A DNA stretch of 64,000 bases. Source: Flavobacteriales bacterium (GTDB lineage Bacteria > Bacteroidota > Bacteroidia > Palsa-965). This document shows, in pieces, positions 50,332 to 59,555 of the stretch (position 1 is the first letter of the stretch; each line of letters starts with the position of its first letter). The stretch spans positions 96,001-160,000 of the forward strand of contig JBEIPA010000001.1 of the NCBI GenBank assembly GCA_040377305.1, given 5' to 3'. A program made the position numbers and the translations under genes. The notes under the pieces are model-generated. The model did not search any database and was not told where the DNA came from. It was given only the letters and a program-made list of their open reading frames with translations.

Positions 50332-50922
50332 ATGAAGGACATGGTACCCATAGCAACGACAATGGCCGCAGAGCAAAACAGGCTGCTTGAAGAAACAGTA
50401 CAGCGCGAAAGACGCCGTTTGCTCGAGTTCATACGAAAAAGAATTCCGCAGGAGGAAGATCCGGAAGACGTGCTTCAGGATGTATTCACTGAATTAACGG
50501 AAGCTTTCAGAATGGAACGGGTCATCGACCGTGTGTCGGGCTGGGTATATCGTGTTGCCAGAAACAAAATCGCAGATCTTTTCAGGAGACGGAGAACAGA
50601 GTCGTTGGAAGCACGATACGAAAAAGAATTTGGCGATGGAGAAGAAGGCTTAGGCTTAAACGACTTGTTGCCTGACCCGTCGGCAGGTCCGGAAGCTGAA
50701 TATGCACGCCGTGTTATTATGAGTGAGTTGATGCTTGCACTTGATGAATTACCGGAAGAACAGCGTTGGGTTTTCTGGGAAAATGAAATCGAAGAACGTC
50801 CTTTCCGTGAGCTCGCGGAAGAGGCTGGAGTGTCGCTCAACACATTACTTTCAAGAAAACGATATGCTGTTTTGTTTCTACGAGAACGTTTGCGCGGTCT
50901 GTATGAAGAGCTCGGCAACTAA
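50332..50922 (+). CDS. ECF-type RNA polymerase sigma factor
   Basis: EDVLQDVF and WVYRVARNKIADLFR (region 2); LPEEQR...FRELAE..GVSLNTLLSRKRYA (region 4). Confidence 0.92.
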   Translation: MKDMVPIATTMAAEQNRLLEETVQRERRRLLEFIRKRIPQEEDPEDVLQDVFTELTEAFRMERVIDRVSGWVYRVARNKIADLFRRRRTESLEARYEKEFGDGEEGLGLNDLLPDPSAGPEAEYARRVIMSELMLALDELPEEQRWVFWENEIEERPFRELAEEAGVSLNTLLSRKRYAVLFLRERLRGLYEELGN

Positions 50923-51079
50923 TAGTAAAGAGTACAGAGAAAAGAGGCGAGAGAAAAGAATGGTGCGGATGCGAAAAAGAAAACAACAGCCTCTCGCCGC
51001 TTTACTCTTCACTCTTTACCCGACCGAAAACGAGGTCGACAAACTAAAAGAAGTATAAACGAACTAAAATATACAACAC

Positions 51080-51472
51080 ATGAAATGGTTTTTGAGATGT
51101 ATAGCAGCCGTAGTGGGATTCGCTGCACTCGCATTCGCGCTCGCGTGGATAACGATGTTGCTCTGGAACTGGTTGGTTCCTGGACTGTTCGGCGGTCCTG
51201 AAATCAGGTACCTCGAAGCTGCAGGATTAATGATTCTCGGTAGACTGCTCGTGGGTGGATTCAAAAGTGGAGGTGGGCATTGCGGTCACGGTGGTAAATG
51301 GGGACATGGCGGACACGGTTACTGGAAACGTCGCTGGGAAGACAAGATGGCGAACATGACTCCGGAAGAAAAGGAGAAGTTCAAAATGGGAATGAACAAG
51401 TGCGGTGGTTGGGGACGTTGGAATGATTGTGAAACTGAGACGCCGAAGGCGGAGACGAACAATACGCAATAG
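51080..51472 (+). CDS. Small membrane protein linked to the ECF sigma factor
   Basis: MLLWNWLVPGLFG, EAAGLMILGRLL, Gly/His-rich linker and MTPEEKEKFK. Confidence 0.8.
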   Translation: MKWFLRCIAAVVGFAALAFALAWITMLLWNWLVPGLFGGPEIRYLEAAGLMILGRLLVGGFKSGGGHCGHGGKWGHGGHGYWKRRWEDKMANMTPEEKEKFKMGMNKCGGWGRWNDCETETPKAETNNTQ

Positions 51473-51512
51473 TCAATACGCAATGCGCAGTCACTAATCT
51501 GAGACTGGAATT

Positions 51513-51558
51513 AAAAGAAAAAGGTTCGAGAGTCAAATCTTCGAACCTTTTTCTTTTT
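51513..51558. terminator. Bidirectional intrinsic terminator
   Basis: AAAAGAAAAAGGTTCGA ... TCGAACCTTTTTCTTTT. Confidence 0.8.
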
Positions 51559-51567
51559 GCGCTTTGG

Positions 51568-53076
51568 CTATTGCGTATTGCTCATTGGATCGCGCTTGCG
51601 CGAAAGTGCAAACATCACAAAAGCCAACGTTATCAACGATACAAAAAACGTAAGCATGCTGCTGTTTGCTTCCGATGTTTGTTCAGGTTCAAAATCCCCG
51701 AACGGAATGATGCTTCCCTGTTTCGAGCTCTGGTGTTTTTTGTCGAGATACTGATCGAACTCTTTCGGATAATCGTAATGCGTGGTGATATCGCGACCAG
51801 TGAGCCACTGATACGTGTATAATTCATTCCAACGACGCTTACCCAGTTCCACCAGATACTCTTGTCCTTTTTCGCAGGTGTAATCCGTACTGTACGGCGG
51901 GTTCGTGAGAATATATCGTCCCTGGAATCGCACCTTATTTGCAGTTTCCTGAAATAACAAATCCTGTGGAAAATGTTCGCGATCATACGTGAGGTGCAGA
52001 CGTGTGAAGTACACGAAGCCTTCGTACGTTTTAGCTTGCGTGTGATAGTCCGTGCTTTTTAGTTCAAGCCAATCTACACCCGCATCTTTCAGATCAGTTA
52101 CAACAGGTGGATCACCAACGCACGGATCACAGAATTGATTTTGCGTTGGAGAAACATCCCAACCGTATTCGAGGAAAACGGTATTCTTTCCCTCGCGACT
52201 CCATGCTTTGTTGTAGAGATCACGATAAAATTCACCGAACTCGTTGCGAACAAACAGCGGCACTTTAAAGTCGGTTGGAATAAGCGAAGTGCGATAGTTT
52301 GTTGTTTCGATGCGTCCAACTTTGGAGTACATGTACACAACAAGATCCTGTACGCCGTTTGCGTTTGCCATTCCCAGGCGAATCGGCAACATGAATTTTG
52401 GTGAGGTGTATGTAATCTGTAGTGGCTTCAATGGCACAGCTCCAGCCGCGGTGTAATTTTCGAGATTCACTTTCGCCACGAAAAACTTCATGTTCGTTTT
52501 GATGTACGGATCGAGAACTTCTTTTGCACCGACCGGCATTTTATAACCGTTGTCAATGAGCCATTCTTCTAATCCACCAGATTCAAGTGCAGAAAGAATA
52601 AGAATATCATATTCACCAACGGTGTATTTCGCTTCCACGGTTACGCCGTAGGATTTTTCCTCCATCGGTGCCGCATTTCCATCGCTGTAACCATAAGCTG
52701 CAGATCTGGTTTTCTTAGCCCCGTAGTGTGGTTTGTATTTCGGAGGAGTGTAACATGGATTCTGATCGTAGTACTCCACCAGACGTGGTGAAGAATACAA
52801 ATCAAGTTTATCGAACAACGCGCGCTCTGCAACTTTGATATCGCCTTCCTGCAATACCACCGGAACCGGAACGACCATTGCAAAATCCTTCACGTCGCCT
52901 TCAAAATCACTCGACATGGTTACGGTTTGCTTATCACCATTCTTCGCAATGATAACCTGCGATGTTTTGTTGAATAGTTTGATGTCTGCTTTTGCAACAT
53001 AAAATCCGCAGAAGCTGTAGCCGATGTTGCTTGTGAACACTATAGCTGCGAGAGTGAGGATGAGCGTCTTTTTCAT
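51568..53076 (-). CDS. DUF2330-family protein, paralog 4 (most divergent)
   Basis: Signal peptide; FCGFYVAKAD, DFAMVVPVP, PRLVEYYD.NPC, FMLPIRLG, CDPC and FQGRY; C-terminal TM followed by RKR. Confidence 0.85.
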   Translation of the reverse strand: MKKTLILTLAAIVFTSNIGYSFCGFYVAKADIKLFNKTSQVIIAKNGDKQTVTMSSDFEGDVKDFAMVVPVPVVLQEGDIKVAERALFDKLDLYSSPRLVEYYDQNPCYTPPKYKPHYGAKKTRSAAYGYSDGNAAPMEEKSYGVTVEAKYTVGEYDILILSALESGGLEEWLIDNGYKMPVGAKEVLDPYIKTNMKFFVAKVNLENYTAAGAVPLKPLQITYTSPKFMLPIRLGMANANGVQDLVVYMYSKVGRIETTNYRTSLIPTDFKVPLFVRNEFGEFYRDLYNKAWSREGKNTVFLEYGWDVSPTQNQFCDPCVGDPPVVTDLKDAGVDWLELKSTDYHTQAKTYEGFVYFTRLHLTYDREHFPQDLLFQETANKVRFQGRYILTNPPYSTDYTCEKGQEYLVELGKRRWNELYTYQWLTGRDITTHYDYPKEFDQYLDKKHQSSKQGSIIPFGDFEPEQTSEANSSMLTFFVSLITLAFVMFALSRKRDPMSNTQ

Positions 53077-53181
53077 TCGGCGGTCGGGTTTATGATATGA
53101 TGATAGAATGATCGGATGATAGGATAGGTCGAGTCAAATATTCACTACACTCTATCATTCAATCATCCCACAATCTTATCA
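53077..53181. repeat. Octamer-repeat hairpin between DUF2330 genes
   Basis: GATATGAT GATAGAAT GATCGGAT GATAGGAT, loop, then ACTCTATC ATTCAATC ATCCCACA ATCTTATC A. Confidence 0.8.
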
Positions 53182-54681
53182 CTGATTCGGTACTGTTTCT
53201 TTTAGCTTGCGCTTACGCGAAAGAGCAAACATCACTCCTGCAAATGCAAGTACTGAAGTGAAAAATGTAATCATATTGCTTTCCGATTTCGTGGCATGCT
53301 CGGGTGTGAAGTTCTCCAAATCAACCAAGGCTCCCTGTTTCTTCGGAGCGCCGCCGGTTAGAAACTGATCGTATTCTTTCGGATAATCTGCATGCGATGT
53401 GATATCGCGACCCGTGAGCCACTGATAGGTGTACAATTCATTCCAGCGACGTTTCCCGAGATCCTTGATGTAAGTCTGTCCTTCTGCACACGACAAATCT
53501 CCGCTGGCCGGATGCGTGATGATGTAGCGGCCCTGAAACTTTTCTTTGTTCGCCGTTTCCTGAAACAACAAATCCTGCGGAAAGTGCGCACGATCATATT
53601 TCAAATGCATGCGCGTGAAGAAAACATTACCTGCATACGTTCTTGCTTGTGTGTGGTAGTCCTGAGTTGCCAGTGTAAGCCAATCTACTCCTGCTTCTTT
53701 CAGATCAGTTACCATTGGAGGATCGCCCACACACGGATCACAAAACTGGGTTTGATTCGGAGAAACTTCCCACGCGTATTCGAGGAACACGGTGTTCTTT
53801 CCTTCGCGTGTCCAGGCTTTGTCGTAGAGATCCCGATAAAATTCGCCGAATTCATTCTGCACAAACAGTGGTACTTTGAAATCGGTTGGAATGAGTGAAG
53901 TGCGATAATTGGTTGTTTCGATTCTTCCGATTTTCGAATACATGTAAATCACGAGATCCTGTACACCATTTGCGTTTGCCATCCCCAGTCGGATTGGCAA
54001 CATAAATTTTGGCGATGTGTAAGTAATTTGAAGCGGATCGAGATCAACCGAACCTTTATTGGCGAACTTCTCGAGATTCACTTTACACACAAAAAACTTC
54101 ATGTTCGTTTTGATGTACGGATCCAAAACTTCTTTTGCACCAACAGGCATTTTGTAACCGTTGGCGTTGAGCCACGTTTCAAGTCCTCCCGATTCTTTCG
54201 CCGACAAAATCAAAATGTCATACGTTCCGATCTGGTACTGCGCTTCAACCGTAACTCCGAGCGTATCTGCAGCATAACCAAAGTTCATCATCGGTGCTGC
54301 ATCGAAAGAAACTTCACTCAGAAGTACTCCTTCATTGTAATACTCAGGTTCCACGTAACAGGGAGTCTGATCGTAATAAGAAACCAATCGTGGAGATGAA
54401 TAATCTTCCAGTTTTCCGAAGATGCTTTGATTCACCGTTCGGATATCTTTCTCCTCCAGCACAACCGGAACTGGAACGACCATGGCAAAGTCTTTCACCT
54501 CTCCTTCAAAATCACTCGACATCGTAACGGTTTGCTTGTCGCCATTCTTTGCTATAATTACCTGTGAAGTCTTGTTGAACAATTTCACATCAGCTTTCGC
54601 CACGTAAAATCCGCAGAAACTGTAGCCTATGTTGCTGGTGAACACTATGGCAGCTAGAGTAAGTATGAGTACTTTCTTCAT
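53179..54681 (-). CDS. DUF2330-family protein, paralog 3
   Basis: Same motifs as the other copies; 500 aa. Confidence 0.85.
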   Translation of the reverse strand: MKKVLILTLAAIVFTSNIGYSFCGFYVAKADVKLFNKTSQVIIAKNGDKQTVTMSSDFEGEVKDFAMVVPVPVVLEEKDIRTVNQSIFGKLEDYSSPRLVSYYDQTPCYVEPEYYNEGVLLSEVSFDAAPMMNFGYAADTLGVTVEAQYQIGTYDILILSAKESGGLETWLNANGYKMPVGAKEVLDPYIKTNMKFFVCKVNLEKFANKGSVDLDPLQITYTSPKFMLPIRLGMANANGVQDLVIYMYSKIGRIETTNYRTSLIPTDFKVPLFVQNEFGEFYRDLYDKAWTREGKNTVFLEYAWEVSPNQTQFCDPCVGDPPMVTDLKEAGVDWLTLATQDYHTQARTYAGNVFFTRMHLKYDRAHFPQDLLFQETANKEKFQGRYIITHPASGDLSCAEGQTYIKDLGKRRWNELYTYQWLTGRDITSHADYPKEYDQFLTGGAPKKQGALVDLENFTPEHATKSESNMITFFTSVLAFAGVMFALSRKRKLKETVPNQ

Positions 54682-54783
54682 GACGTAAGTTTATGATAGG
54701 ATGATAGAATGATCGGATGATTGGATAGGTCGGGTGATCGTACTAACTCCATCCTATCATTCAATCATCTGATAATCCCATCA
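54682..54783. repeat. Octamer-repeat hairpin between DUF2330 genes
   Basis: GATAGGAT GATAGAAT GATCGGAT GATTGGAT, loop, then ATCCTATC ATTCAATC ATCTGATA ATCCCATC A. Confidence 0.8.
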
Positions 54784-56283
54784 TGAATTCGGCACTGTTT
54801 GTTCCTTTGATTTCCGCTTACGCGATAAAGCAAACATTACTCCGGCAAACGCAAGAACAGAAGTAAAGAAACTAATCATGTTGCTTTCCGATTTCGTTGC
54901 ATGTTCCGGTATGAATTCCTCAGGTGTCAAGAATGAACCTTGTTTCTTCGCCGCACCACCCGTTAAATACCGATCGAACTCCTTCGGATAATCGTAATGC
55001 GCAGTAATATCGCGACCAGTTAGCCACTGATAGGTATAGAGTTCATTCCAACGGCGCTTTCCAAGATCCTTGATATACGTTTGCCCTTCTGCACAAGAAA
55101 GATCTCCGCTTGCCGGATAGGTGATAATGTAACGACCCTGAAACTTTTCCTTGTTCGCTGTTTCCTGGAATAACAAATCCTGCGGGAAGTGTGCGCGATC
55201 ATACGTGAGGTGCAAACGCGTGAAGAACACATTACCTGCGTATGTTCTCGCTTGCGTGTGGTAATCCTGAGTCGCCAGTGTAAGCCAATCTACTCCGGCT
55301 TCTTTCAGATCAGTTACCATCGGTGGATCACCAACGCACGGATCGCAGAACTGTGTTTGATTCGGAGAAACTTCCCATGCGTATTCGAGAAACACGGTGT
55401 TCTTTCCTTCCCGTCCCCAAGCTTTATTGTAGAGATCGCGATAGAACACACCGAACTCATCTTTCGCAAACAGAGGCACTTTGAAATCGGTTGGGATTAA
55501 CGAGGTGCGATAATTAGTCGTCTCGATGCGACCGATCTTTGAATACATGTAGATGATCAAATCCTGAACCCCATTGGCATTCGCCATTCCAAGTCGGATC
55601 GGCAACATGAATTTCGGCGACGTGTAAGTAATTTGAAGTGGATCGAGATCAACAGAACCTTTGTTCGCAAATTTTTCAAGATTCACTTTGCAAACAAAGA
55701 ACTTCATATTGGTCTTGATGTACGGATCGAGAACTTCCTTAGCACCAACCGGCATTTTGTATCCGTTGTCGTTGAGCCACGTTTCGAGTCCGCCCGATTC
55801 CTTTGCTGACAAGATGAGAATATCGTACGTGCCGATTTGGTATTGAGCTTCAATAGTTACACCTAAACTTTGAGTTGTAGTCACATTCGCGACACTCATT
55901 CTCATCATTTCCGGAGCTGCAGCAACCATATCGTAATCGTAATCGTCCCGCTCAACGTAACAAGGTGTTTGATCGTAATACGATACCAATCGTGGAGCGG
56001 AATAATCTTCCAGTTTTCCGAAGATGCTTTGATTCACTGTGCGAATATCTTTCTCTTCAAGAACTACAGGCACGGGAACAACCATCGCGAAATCTTTTAC
56101 TTCGCCTTCGAAGTCGCTCGACATGGTTACTGTTTGCTTATCGCCATTCTTCGCGATAATCACCTGAGACGTTTTGTTGAAGAGCTTTACATCCGATTTC
56201 GCAACGTAGAAACCACAGAAGCTGTAGCCCATATTGCTGGTGAATAGGATAGCGGCGAGGGTGACGATAAGTATTTTTTTCAT
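54781..56283 (-). CDS. DUF2330-family protein, paralog 2
   Basis: Same motifs as the other copies; 500 aa. Confidence 0.85.
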   Translation of the reverse strand: MKKILIVTLAAILFTSNMGYSFCGFYVAKSDVKLFNKTSQVIIAKNGDKQTVTMSSDFEGEVKDFAMVVPVPVVLEEKDIRTVNQSIFGKLEDYSAPRLVSYYDQTPCYVERDDYDYDMVAAAPEMMRMSVANVTTTQSLGVTIEAQYQIGTYDILILSAKESGGLETWLNDNGYKMPVGAKEVLDPYIKTNMKFFVCKVNLEKFANKGSVDLDPLQITYTSPKFMLPIRLGMANANGVQDLIIYMYSKIGRIETTNYRTSLIPTDFKVPLFAKDEFGVFYRDLYNKAWGREGKNTVFLEYAWEVSPNQTQFCDPCVGDPPMVTDLKEAGVDWLTLATQDYHTQARTYAGNVFFTRLHLTYDRAHFPQDLLFQETANKEKFQGRYIITYPASGDLSCAEGQTYIKDLGKRRWNELYTYQWLTGRDITAHYDYPKEFDRYLTGGAAKKQGSFLTPEEFIPEHATKSESNMISFFTSVLAFAGVMFALSRKRKSKEQTVPNS

Positions 56284-56388
56284 GACACTGTAAGTTGATG
56301 ATGGAATGATAGAATTATTGGATGATAGGATGGAACGAAGAACAACATAAACTACATCCTATCATTTAATCATCTGAGCATCCTATCA
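56284..56388. repeat. Octamer-repeat hairpin between DUF2330 genes
   Basis: GATGGAAT GATAGAAT TATTGGAT GATAGGAT, loop, then ATCCTATC ATTTAATC ATCTGAGC ATCCTATC A. Confidence 0.8.
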
Positions 56389-57894
56389 TGTTTGTGAGGT
56401 AGTTTGAGACTTTGCCTTCCGTTTTCGCGATAACGCAAACATCACTCCTGCAAATGCAAGTACAGAAGTGAAGAACGTGATCATATTGCCTTCAGACTTT
56501 GTTGCGTGTTCCGGCACGAAAGACTCGATTGACATGAACGAACCTTGTTTGGTTTTTCCACCGGTTGATTTGATGTGCTGATCATATTCCTTCGGATAGT
56601 CGTAGTGCGCAGTAATGTCGCGACCGGTAAGCCACTGATACGTGTAAAGCTCGTTCCAACGGCGCTTACCAAGCTCCTTCACATAAGTCTGTCCCTTTTC
56701 GCACGAGAAATCTCCGCTTGCCGGATGAGTAATGATGTAACGACCCTGAAATTTTTCTTTGTTCGCTGTTTCCTGGAACAACAAATCCTGCGGGAAGTGC
56801 GCGCGATCATACGTAAGATGCATACGTGTAAAGAACACATTGCCTGCGTACGTTCTCGCTTGTGTATGATAATCCTGGCTCGCAAGTTCAAGCCAATCAA
56901 CGCCAGCTTCTTTCAGGTCAGTTACCATTGGAGGATCGCCAACGCACGGATCACAAAACTGCGTTTGATTCGGAGAAACTTCCCACGCATACTCGAGGAA
57001 TACGGTATTCTTTCCTTCGCGGCCCCAAGCTTTGTTGTACAGGTCGCGGTAGAATTCGCCAAACTCATTCTGAACAAACAACGGAACTTTAAAATCGGTT
57101 GGAATCAAAGACGTGCGATAGTTTGTTGTTTCGATACGACCGATCTTCGAATACATGTAAATGATCAAATCCTGAACTCCATTCGCATTTGCCATTCCGA
57201 GTCGAATCGGCAACATGAACTTCGGTGATGCATACGTAATCTGAAGTGGATCGAGATCAACGGAACCTTTGTTTGCGAATTTTTCCAGATTCACTTTACA
57301 CACGAAGAATTTCATGTTCGTTTTGATGTACGGATCGAGCACTTCTTTAGCGCCCACCGGCATTTTGTATCCGTTGTCGTTGAGCCACATCTCTAATCCG
57401 CCCGATTCTTTCGCTGATAAAATCAGGATGTCATAAGTTCCAATTTGGTATTGCGCTTCTACAGTTACCTGGTAGTCGTCAGCCAACTCCTTGCTTACGC
57501 TTTTCATTTCCATTCTGTCGATAGACGCTCCCGCAGCCATAGGATAGTTGTAATACTCCGGTTCTACGTAACAGGGGTTCTCATCGTAATAAGAAACGAG
57601 TCGCGGGGCTGAGTAGTCATCAAGTTTGGCGAAGATGCTCGCTTGCACAGTTCGTATGTCTTTCTCTTCGAGAACTACCGGAACAGGAACGACCATTGCA
57701 AAATCCTTCACGTCGCCCTCGAAGTCGCTCGACATGGTAACGGTTTGCTTCTCGCCATTCTTCGCGATAATAACCTGCGATGATTTATTGAAAAGTTTCA
57801 CGTCTGCTTTTGCAACATAAAATCCGCAGAAGCTATAGCCCATGTTGCTGGTGAACACAATGGCTGCGAGAGTGAGTATCAGTACTTTTTTCAT
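56386..57894 (-). CDS. DUF2330-family protein, paralog 1
   Basis: Same motifs as the other copies; 502 aa. Confidence 0.85.
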   Translation of the reverse strand: MKKVLILTLAAIVFTSNMGYSFCGFYVAKADVKLFNKSSQVIIAKNGEKQTVTMSSDFEGDVKDFAMVVPVPVVLEEKDIRTVQASIFAKLDDYSAPRLVSYYDENPCYVEPEYYNYPMAAGASIDRMEMKSVSKELADDYQVTVEAQYQIGTYDILILSAKESGGLEMWLNDNGYKMPVGAKEVLDPYIKTNMKFFVCKVNLEKFANKGSVDLDPLQITYASPKFMLPIRLGMANANGVQDLIIYMYSKIGRIETTNYRTSLIPTDFKVPLFVQNEFGEFYRDLYNKAWGREGKNTVFLEYAWEVSPNQTQFCDPCVGDPPMVTDLKEAGVDWLELASQDYHTQARTYAGNVFFTRMHLTYDRAHFPQDLLFQETANKEKFQGRYIITHPASGDFSCEKGQTYVKELGKRRWNELYTYQWLTGRDITAHYDYPKEYDQHIKSTGGKTKQGSFMSIESFVPEHATKSEGNMITFFTSVLAFAGVMFALSRKRKAKSQTTSQT

Positions 57895-58000
57895 GACCCT
57901 TTAGTTTTATGATCGAATGATTCAATGATTTGATGATCGGATTGGATACGGTACAACAGAAACTCCATCCTATCAATCTATAATCATATCATGCTAATTA
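57895..58000. repeat. Octamer-repeat hairpin (more degenerate) between the RnfD-like gene and the first DUF2330 gene
   Basis: GATCGAAT GATTCAAT GATTTGAT GATCGGAT, loop, then ATCCTATC AATCTATA ATCATATC ATGCTAAT. Confidence 0.7.
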
Positions 58001-58015
58001 TTCGTGGTATTGAGT

Positions 58016-58879
58016 TTATTTAGACCAGGAGAATTTATCTCCTTTGAAAATTTTATCGAGCACAGGAACGAGTGGTGACAAGAAGAACAATGCCCACACT
58101 GGAGGCGCAGAATACACCCACCATTTCGTTGCCATGTAGTATGCCAGAATGCCAACTCCAACAGCCCATATCAATCGTGCTTTTTGTGAAGCAGGAGTCT
58201 GAACCGGATCAGTGATCATGAAGAAGGTGAAGAGCAGCAACGAACCGTTCGTTAATTGATGCGTAAAGAAATCCATCGGCCAACCGAGGTAAAGAATGTT
58301 GCGCGCAAACATTAACCCGAGGAACGTAAGCAAGAATGCAAACGCTGTATCGAGACGTTTAACGCGCAACAGCACAACCAAACCTGTAAGGCCTACAACA
58401 AACAACAACAAACCGTCACTTCCCCACTGTCCAGGAGAAATCCATGAGTCACCTGTAAGCAGGACTGTTACACAGATTCCAAAGTTTGTTGGATTGAAAA
58501 TATGTTTGCCATTATATTTTAAAAAGAACTTGCTTCCGATGGAGAGCACTGCACACAACACGAATGTCCACACACTGTTTGCCTGCATCATCAAACAGAT
58601 ACTCATTGCACTTACGAGTGCACTCTTGAGTCCTGTCCAATCTTTCGTCTTGAACTGTATCCAAAGTGCCTGCACTGCGAGACAAGAAAGAATCACGATG
58701 TTCACCCGCATGATTGGGATCGTCCAATCCAACACGAAAATCCCGTACAACAGGAAAGACAGTTGGAACAGAATCTGATAATGGCGGGCATCACTTCGAA
58801 ACCATTCGAGAACGTTAGTTACGGGCTTAATCGCCGTTTTTAGGGCGTTTTGGGCGACGGGTAGAGATTGAGTTTCCAT
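58016..58879 (-). CDS. RnfD/NqrB-family (UnbU-like) integral membrane protein, stand-alone
   Basis: DARHYQI, SKFFL...KHIFNPTNFG, WISPGQWG and FFMITDPVQTP; about 9-10 TM segments. Start METQSL at 58879; the upstream extension is translated heptamer repeat. Confidence 0.8.
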   Translation of the reverse strand: METQSLPVAQNALKTAIKPVTNVLEWFRSDARHYQILFQLSFLLYGIFVLDWTIPIMRVNIVILSCLAVQALWIQFKTKDWTGLKSALVSAMSICLMMQANSVWTFVLCAVLSIGSKFFLKYNGKHIFNPTNFGICVTVLLTGDSWISPGQWGSDGLLLFVVGLTGLVVLLRVKRLDTAFAFLLTFLGLMFARNILYLGWPMDFFTHQLTNGSLLLFTFFMITDPVQTPASQKARLIWAVGVGILAYYMATKWWVYSAPPVWALFFLSPLVPVLDKIFKGDKFSWSK

Positions 58880-59087: not shown

Positions 59088-59555
59088 TCAATACTCGTCT
59101 GCTTTCAACACTTTCTTCACCCGTGAGCCTTCTTCATTGAAGCACTGCACATAATACACGCCGACCGGAAACCCGCGGAAGTCAACCTGGAAAAGCTGAT
59201 GCGTGTTTACGAAAAATCCATAGCTGTAGTATTCTTTTCCGAAGCGATCAAACACTTTTACGTAAACCACTCCCGGAACCTTTACCCAGATGTCCATTGT
59301 AATTAAATCGACTGGGGGATTCGGTGTGTACCAGAAATCTATCGGATCGCAAATGGTGTTGGAGTTCCAGTATGTTAATCCTGCATTGTTCGAAAAGCAA
59401 TCATTCTGATAGGTGAATCCATCGCAACCACAAACCGGTTCGTAGCGCGGATCACAATAACCCCCGTATACAACTTGTGTAGAGTCGTAACACCCTTGCG
59501 CTTTCGCAAAATGACATACGACAATCAACAATACCGCAAAAGTCCAACGGATCAT
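59088..59555 (-). CDS. Kazal-like domain protein with T9SS CTD
   Basis: Signal peptide AKA-Q; CDPRYEPVCGCDGFTYQNDC; YTPNPP...VFDRFG...GVYYVQ...KKVLK. Confidence 0.8.
   Translation of the reverse strand: MIRWTFAVLLIVVCHFAKAQGCYDSTQVVYGGYCDPRYEPVCGCDGFTYQNDCFSNNAGLTYWNSNTICDPIDFWYTPNPPVDLITMDIWVKVPGVVYVKVFDRFGKEYYSYGFFVNTHQLFQVDFRGFPVGVYYVQCFNEEGSRVKKVLKADEY

Follow-up and report, generated by a model that had tools for sequence, protein, structure and literature searches.

An RnfD/NqrB-fold membrane protein heading an array of four DUF2330 paralogues: a possible flavin-serviced, P35-like protease trap

The five-gene array

Within the window analysed here, i.e. the whole stretch of 64,000 nucleotides from a Flavobacteriales bacterium (positions 96,001 to 160,000 of contig JBEIPA010000001.1, assembly GCA_040377305.1), five open reading frames follow one another in tandem on the minus strand, with 99-121 bases between neighbours. 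As the initial annotation had it, an RnfD-like gene heads the array, namely that of a PF03116 membrane protein (58016..58879; 287 residues, ten predicted membrane helices), and it is followed by the genes of four DUF2330 proteins, paralogue 1 (56386..57894; 502 residues), paralogue 2 (54781..56283; 500 residues), paralogue 3 (53179..54681; 500 residues) and paralogue 4 (51568..53076; 502 residues), the last being the most divergent copy. On the same strand, a terminator-like hairpin flanked on either side by A/T runs (51510..51560, approximate ends) closes the array against a convergent gene; it is strong, at -35 kcal/mol with a T run in the fold of the 95-base gap, and a second hairpin with a T run separates the membrane gene from the gene upstream, so that the five genes likely form a single unit. 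A consensus scan for promoters and terminators gave no excess over shuffled sequences, and the array-end hairpin was not among its listings. Besides, each internal gap (57895-58015, 56284-56385, 54682-54780 and 53077-53178) contains a ATCATNNN repeat with an inverted arm, able to form a hairpin. This repeat, which resembles a REP-type (repetitive extragenic palindromic) element, makes up 35 arrays across the genome, some of them at contig ends, and was set aside as an array-specific feature for that reason.

The genome is 99.99% complete and yields a single PF03116 match and four DUF2330 matches. Profiles for ApbE (PF02424), FMN_bind (PF04205) and RnfA/E-NqrD/E (PF02508), all positive on controls, found no match in it, RnfB/C and NqrA/F lying outside this search; over that range, the earlier statement that no other rnf/nqr subunit is present stands.

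Linkage and fusion of the two families

Regarding the tie between PF03116 and DUF2330, a survey took in the best 80 of at least 587 loci found with the membrane protein, each assigned to Bacteroidota from its title or its sequence, and DUF2330 adjoins the membrane gene on the same strand in 78 of them (72 downstream, 6 upstream); in the two misses, the record ends 0 and 17 bases past the membrane gene. Among 401 Bacteroidota genomes, DUF2330 occurs in six, which are also the only ones with a top-tier membrane match (305-441 bits), and there the pair is always adjacent, twice within one reading frame, these genomes being partly kin. All of the 120 long homologues among the matches listed (615 matches in total) carry both Pfam domains, the membrane part first, and fusions were also found in a cyanobacterium and in Candidatus Binataceae. 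A second set of 80 mostly high-GC metagenome loci, retrieved with a fusion protein as query, which favours a linked result, comprised 16 fused pairs, 50 adjacent pairs and 14 loci with DUF2330 only, 13 of the latter being cut by the start of the contig. Mapped on a quick tree, fusion requires 18 changes of state, of which strongly supported branches force at least 8. The neighbourhood test that had been proposed at the outset thus comes out as coupling, and the view that the membrane protein and DUF2330 constitute one unit across several phyla is supported. Partnerless on their records are a distant Nocardia DUF2330 protein, which starts with C-A-C-G and lacks CDPC, and a split Deinococcus copy. 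An underpowered coupling analysis over 243 paired sequences (effective number 98) gave high-scoring inter-protein pairs, some of them topologically implausible, against a shuffle control that breaks kinship, and is given no weight.

Other features were encountered around such pairs. Directly upstream of the array (59088-59555, minus strand) lies a gene whose secreted product combines a Kazal-type protease-inhibitor domain with a weak tail of the type IX secretion system (T9SS); as a functional member of the unit it was rejected, being limited to the closest loci (L006-L018), where 12 of 13 have it and the short L008 does not. Convergent to the array (50332-51472, plus strand) are genes for an extracytoplasmic function (ECF) sigma factor and for a small membrane protein rich in Gly and His; in 16 Bacteroidota loci the pair has an ECF homologue nearby, and 18 metagenome loci have a different ECF sigma factor upstream. 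One divergent ApbE-like gene, a single case, was seen about 2 kb past an array of two DUF2330 copies and in the opposite orientation (G086:C196:27153-27962); no ApbE was found in two of the five other genomes carrying the pair. One partial protein, P0195, has two DUF2330 units in one frame. The array proteins gave no PADLOC or PHROG match, no relative was found in viral contigs, and no RNA holder is listed at the locus. With a homologue as query, the Protein Atlas returned DUF2330 clusters only, then unnamed clusters under 0.9.

Predicted properties of the two partners

The PF03116 score of the membrane protein is 54 bits, far under the NCBIfam cut-offs for RnfD, RsxD and NqrB. Its model, of ten helices and with a predicted local distance difference test score (pLDDT) of 93, nonetheless has the predicted RnfD/NqrB fold, matching RnfD at Z 23.8 (8RBQ_D; VIA-align) with a Foldseek template-modelling score of 0.71, and NqrB at Z 21; weaker matches are to AmtB and urea channels (Z 9-12). 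The motifs HIFNP (residues 126-130) and FMITDP..TP (220-229) are kept, but about 75 residues are deleted, profile positions 121 to 128 corresponding to Azotobacter vinelandii RnfD residues 135 to 211. The deleted segment is the one that carries the S/T-G-A-T flavinylation motif in RnfD, which was not found anywhere in the 287 residues, and the outer loop covering the RnfD cavity is missing. Alignment to RnfD thus bears out the initial description of a short protein with both motifs and no flavinylation site.

The residues that bind riboflavin in NqrB are T162, N200, N203 and D346 (bioRxiv 2022.04.19.488743), with Asn124 and Asp248 as counterparts in RnfD (PMC9588780). The four NqrB residues align with S90, H126, N129 and D224 of the present protein, Asn200 being replaced by His; over 272 sequences, N129 and H126 are each conserved in 265 and D224 in 270, the remainder being mostly gaps. 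The contact positions of the flavin-binding subunits named by the initial annotation are thus kept, and the membrane partner probably holds a non-covalent flavin. An invariant W-x-S-x-G-Q-W-G and the loop at 197-212 are devoid of basic residues and should face outward, the inner loops being marked by basic residues.

In the quick tree, this membrane protein groups outside RnfD/NqrB (support 100), in a clade that also takes in a second tier of homologues present in 18 of the 401 genomes, none of which has DUF2330. Of 16 second-tier loci fetched, 13 adjoin a gene for a protein of about 600 residues, which in the two checked against Pfam is an FG-GAP and UnbV/ASPIC protein, and two further loci add DUF1702. 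These proteins share the deletion and the pocket motifs, so that the kinship with stand-alone homologues put forward by the initial annotation is upheld; those beside UnbV/ASPIC genes are of the UnbU type, on which a literature search returned nothing relevant. Outside partners of several kinds thus use one membrane scaffold. The sister membrane protein stands beside one or two UnbV/ASPIC proteins at L089-L104 (Rhodothermota-like and other genomes) and the two form a second undescribed module, AhpD-like CxxC genes adjoining it at L089, L092 and L095. Two Bacteroidota loci, L105 (G218) and L103 (G132), have the membrane protein, UnbV/ASPIC and DUF1702 as a trio, a combination that also occurs in enediyne cassettes. 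UnbU and UnbL have their place in the enediyne core cassette, which the literature listing gives as E3, E4, E5, E and E10 only. On a Metabacillus plasmid (L086:6405-7792), near mer genes, a CQAC redoxin gene overlaps a homologous membrane gene.

The four DUF2330 proteins score 228-237 bits with PF10092, and the later copies share 74-86% identity with the first. In each of them a signal peptide stops just ahead of F-C-G, and the C-terminus carries a membrane anchor. Of 78 Bacteroidota copies 77 have this anchor, as against none of 67 copies of the metagenome set, and it is therefore dispensable. As noted initially, all four keep five Cys (FCG, PCY, CDPC and a late Cys), and these are invariant over 272 sequences with one substitution, gaps aside, CDPC in 256 of the 256 with residues there; a sixth Cys of three paralogues is Ala in the last copy. 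Since the number of invariant Cys is odd, one would stay unpaired if the rest form disulfides. In paralogue 1, CDPC (56944..56955, minus strand; residues 314-317) sits in a modelled loop without regular secondary structure. Many polar and aromatic residues are invariant too. With a cleavage site predicted from motif, the second residue of the mature protein is Cys in 271 of 272 sequences, and Ala is kept at -1 before FCG in 117 of 119 fused proteins, where the N-terminus seemingly must still be freed; this suggests that a free N-terminus matters in fused forms as well.

The model of the mature protein (pLDDT 88) shows a beta-sandwich, model residues 92-118 being disordered. Its best match with VIA-align is baculovirus P35, at Z 10.9 and a root-mean-square deviation (rmsd) of 5.0 Å over 219 of 295 residues, model residues 3-357 lying on P35 2-300, the next unrelated match being at Z 7.6; in a wide structural search, P35 was the sole chain at Z≥8 among 48,161 (Z 10.1), and 219-223 residues were aligned between model and P35. 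In the viral structure library BFVD, the top row was a Clandestinovirus protein (E 7e-8), while P35/P49 proteins made up five of the top eight (E 1.9e-4 to 2.7e-3). The DUF2330 proteins are accordingly assigned a P35-like predicted fold, as a distant match. The Clandestinovirus protein A0A8F8PN05 and a Tupanvirus one, A0A6N1NI77, match the model as well as P35 does or better, and may bridge DUF2330 and P35. PF02331, the P35 family of Pfam, had no match in the array proteins or in the genome, control genomes giving none either. A relation to OrfX2 was dropped, its weak sequence match (E 0.03) being unreproduced by profile.

As a correction, near-identity of the paralogues does not extend to the loop that follows PC, in which 36 of 38 columns vary among the four copies versus 19-25% of core columns. 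In paralogue 1 this variable disordered loop, the candidate bait, covers residues 109-142 (57469..57570; 34 residues) and is of mixed composition; in paralogue 2 (55861..55959; 33 residues) it is acidic with 4 Met, in paralogue 3 (54256..54357; 34 residues) hydrophobic, with no Lys/Arg and 9 Phe/Leu/Tyr, and in paralogue 4 (52645..52752; 36 residues) basic, with 6 Lys/Arg, all on the minus strand. Non-synonymous difference ranges over 0.43-0.68 for the loop, 0.19-0.43 for another disordered linker and 0.03-0.13 for the core, the loop exceeding the linker in six of six paralogue pairs. Its length, on the other hand, is held at 29-37 residues (standard deviation 1.4) versus 23-65 (6.0) for the segment after CDPC, over the 326 of 408 sequences that fit the pattern. 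Variable sequence at fixed length is what would be expected of a strained bait loop, as in serpins and P35. Loop identity among the four copies is 17-38%, whereas the loop of paralogue 2 is 73-76% identical to loops from two other sources and that of paralogue 4 is 64% identical to that of one relative, whose core is 96% identical. It is therefore doubtful that the four partners are interchangeable, as first supposed, since they diverge mostly in a single loop of conserved length, types of which are also found in other genomes. Met is twofold enriched in the loop, that of paralogue 4 having only one. Gene conversion, assembly artefact and cassette shuffling were ruled out, since the copies share no identical stretch that reaches 40 bases and synonymous sites are saturated; by their sequences, the paralogues appear to come from old duplications. 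For comparison, of the two alpha-2-macroglobulin baits of this genome, one has a low-complexity stretch. Fusion proteins P0257, P0262, P0269, P0350 and their kin have loops such as L-N-E-V-V-V-T-G-Y/F-G, which may be akin to the TonB-box region of SusC-type receptors.

A possible protease trap, its rivals and known systems

On the best reading, which is tentative, possible rather than probable and built on the predicted models, the membrane protein and the four DUF2330 proteins would constitute a periplasmic protease trap with four baits and a flavin-binding partner. Signal peptidase would free Phe1-Cys2 of DUF2330, a target protease would cut the variable loop acting as bait, and the freed N-terminal Cys would intercept the acyl-enzyme and hold the protease, as P35 holds a caspase via C2 after a cut at D87 in a flexible loop (PMC7863939, PMC3252740). 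The CDPC loop could dock in the outer cavity vacated by the missing flavin mononucleotide (FMN) and exchange electrons with the flavin, which would keep Cys2 usable in the oxidising periplasm, the membrane partner thus setting the redox state of the DUF2330 Cys, and the four loops, i.e. mixed, acidic with Met, hydrophobic and basic, would broaden the range of proteases caught. For an inner-membrane-anchored periplasmic trap with a disordered bait, bacterial alpha-2-macroglobulin is a precedent (PMC4498604). A trap would account for the fold, Cys2, the behaviour of the loop, the retained cleavage site and the presence of four copies, and a flavin partner tending thiols for the linkage and CDPC. 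The fuller proposal, in which DUF2330 is a cellular relative of P35 and a suicide trap kept armed by a one-subunit, RnfD-derived flavin conduit, in a four-bait array for different protease specificities, is a little less likely.

Several points weigh against the trap. On the structural side, the P35 match is distant (rmsd 5 Å, 8-10% identity), P35 is top in Foldseek but at E 0.006, with no PDB row at E 0.001, a sequence search of the PDB found no match, hence no link to P35, up to E 10, and ribophorin, M1 aminopeptidase N-domains and inter-alpha-inhibitor belong to the same beta-sandwich class (Z 5-7.6). As for the loop, it is equated with the P35 reactive loop by position only; away from its ends no inner position is conserved above about 30%, with neither a fixed P1 residue nor a conserved Asp, and synonymous sites are saturated among the paralogues, so that positive selection is not shown. 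Phe precedes the N-terminal Cys, and Cys2 is possibly tied in a disulfide. Regarding the membrane partner, a trap has no obvious need of one and P35 works without; the protein has no invariant Cys, two Cys columns being filled in just 148 and 173 of 272 sequences, and its sisters pair with UnbV/ASPIC proteins, 7 of 13 such partners having no Cys at all, so that thiol exchange is not general to the membrane clade. Finally, no third gene that would supply electrons is conserved over the 160 loci, as every recurrent neighbour turns up in a single locus set and not in the other.

A plain trans-membrane redox relay, which is close to the inference of the initial annotation and nearly as likely as the trap, would have electrons pass between the membrane flavin and the CDPC dithiol and between DUF2330 and an envelope substrate (disulfides, oxidised Met or metal), the P35-like fold being a scaffold only and the loop picking substrates or scavenging oxidant. 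The riboflavin-pocket residues and the invariant CDPC fit such a relay, as do the twofold Met enrichment of the loop and the Metabacillus homologue overlapping a CxxC redoxin gene; besides, the flavinylated Thr is missing from the related two-subunit NQR/RNF-like systems as well, and the cofactor of their partner has been modelled as entering the membrane subunit (PMC10979944). The DUF2330 fold is however unlike thioredoxin, no thioredoxin-like fold having turned up in the structural searches, and the strict loop length, the cleavage site kept in fusions and the four loop-divergent copies are left unexplained, while the loop of paralogue 4 has its one Met. Neither is an inner donor or acceptor gene conserved, and the quinone pocket of NqrB is built from N-terminal helices that RnfD is without (PMC12174285), as are most relatives here.

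An envelope enzyme pair, in which DUF2330 would be the catalytic or substrate-binding half of an oxidative or reductive enzyme using the membrane flavin and the Cys would mostly form structural disulfides, is quite unlikely. It would suit the sister clade, with its often Cys-free UnbV/ASPIC partners and, in some loci, DUF1702 (a trio that is part of the enediyne core cassette), as well as the many invariant polar and aromatic residues of DUF2330, but the structural searches gave no enzyme-fold match, no biosynthetic neighbours are conserved over the 160 loci, and a disordered bait-like loop of fixed length would be unexpected. Very unlikely is a protease-gated sensor or pore, in which loop cleavage would open or switch the channel-fold partner and cause an ion leak or a signal once foreign proteases enter the periplasm: it would give a bait protein a reason for a membrane partner and draws on the AmtB and urea-channel matches and on the deleted outer loop, but the protein is far closer to RnfD/NqrB (Z 21-24) with its flavin-pocket residues kept, riboflavin plugs the centre in NqrB (bioRxiv 2022.04.19.488743), and neither a cytoplasmic signalling domain nor any PADLOC or PHROG match was found.

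If the protease-trap reading is true, a bacterial protein that is widespread and combines the P35 fold with the Cys and a loop of the bait kind would be the likely cellular origin of P35, and a new class of envelope protease defence would be at hand. A 2011 paper (PMC3252740) knew of no cellular homologue of P35, and none appears by title or abstract start among papers from 2020 on; no paper naming DUF2330 was found in a literature search from whose coverage most subscription journals and supplements fall out. Independently of the trap, a two-gene, multi-phylum unit emerges in which an RnfD scaffold stands without FMN, ApbE or another pump subunit, offering a simple handle on the riboflavin half of RnfD/NqrB alone and on the UnbV-linked relatives. 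The present locus is a good test case, with four natural variants that have a common core and different loops.

Compared with known systems, the membrane protein shares with RnfD/NqrB (PF03116) the fold, the ten helices and the riboflavin-contacting positions, but it lacks the segment of about 75 residues with the FMN threonine, it belongs to a separate clade, and neither another subunit (PF02508 searched) nor ApbE is found in the genome. The two-subunit NQR/RNF-like systems (PMC8238504, PMC10979944) likewise combine an RnfD-like subunit devoid of the flavinylated Thr with one outside partner, yet they have a fused C-terminal NAD-binding domain (PF00175), a flavinylated FMN_bind partner and ApbE, all of which the array unit is without, its partner being a Cys-bearing, P35-like protein; the 287 residues contain PF03116 only, and the 120 listed long homologues carry DUF2330 in place of PF00175. 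The UnbV/ASPIC-linked stand-alone proteins have in common the deletion, the pocket motifs and the large clade, and differ by their FG-GAP/UnbV partner, often Cys-free. With P35/P49 (PF02331; PDB 1P35, 1I4E), DUF2330 shares a match over nearly the whole P35 chain, Cys2 and a flexible loop at a comparable distance from the N-terminus; it showed no sequence similarity to the family in the searches made and, unlike P35/P49, it is exported and often membrane-anchored, carries four further invariant Cys and an additional helical part at the C-terminus, is tied to a membrane partner and has no conserved loop Asp (the caspase P1 residue). Bacterial alpha-2-macroglobulin is also periplasmic, anchored in the inner membrane and co-encoded with a partner, with a disordered bait of low conservation (PMC4498604), but it is unrelated in fold and size, and its CxEQ thioester motif occurs in just one of 408 DUF2330 sequences. 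DsbB/DsbD-type thiol relays, for their part, have an invariant membrane Cys pair, in contrast to the partly filled Cys columns described above. The unit thus departs in defining features from Rnf/Nqr, from the NQR/RNF-like systems, from P35 with its Asp site, from alpha-2-macroglobulin and from DsbB/DsbD, and it is on these grounds that we rate it, with a mechanism that we infer, as a new kind of system.

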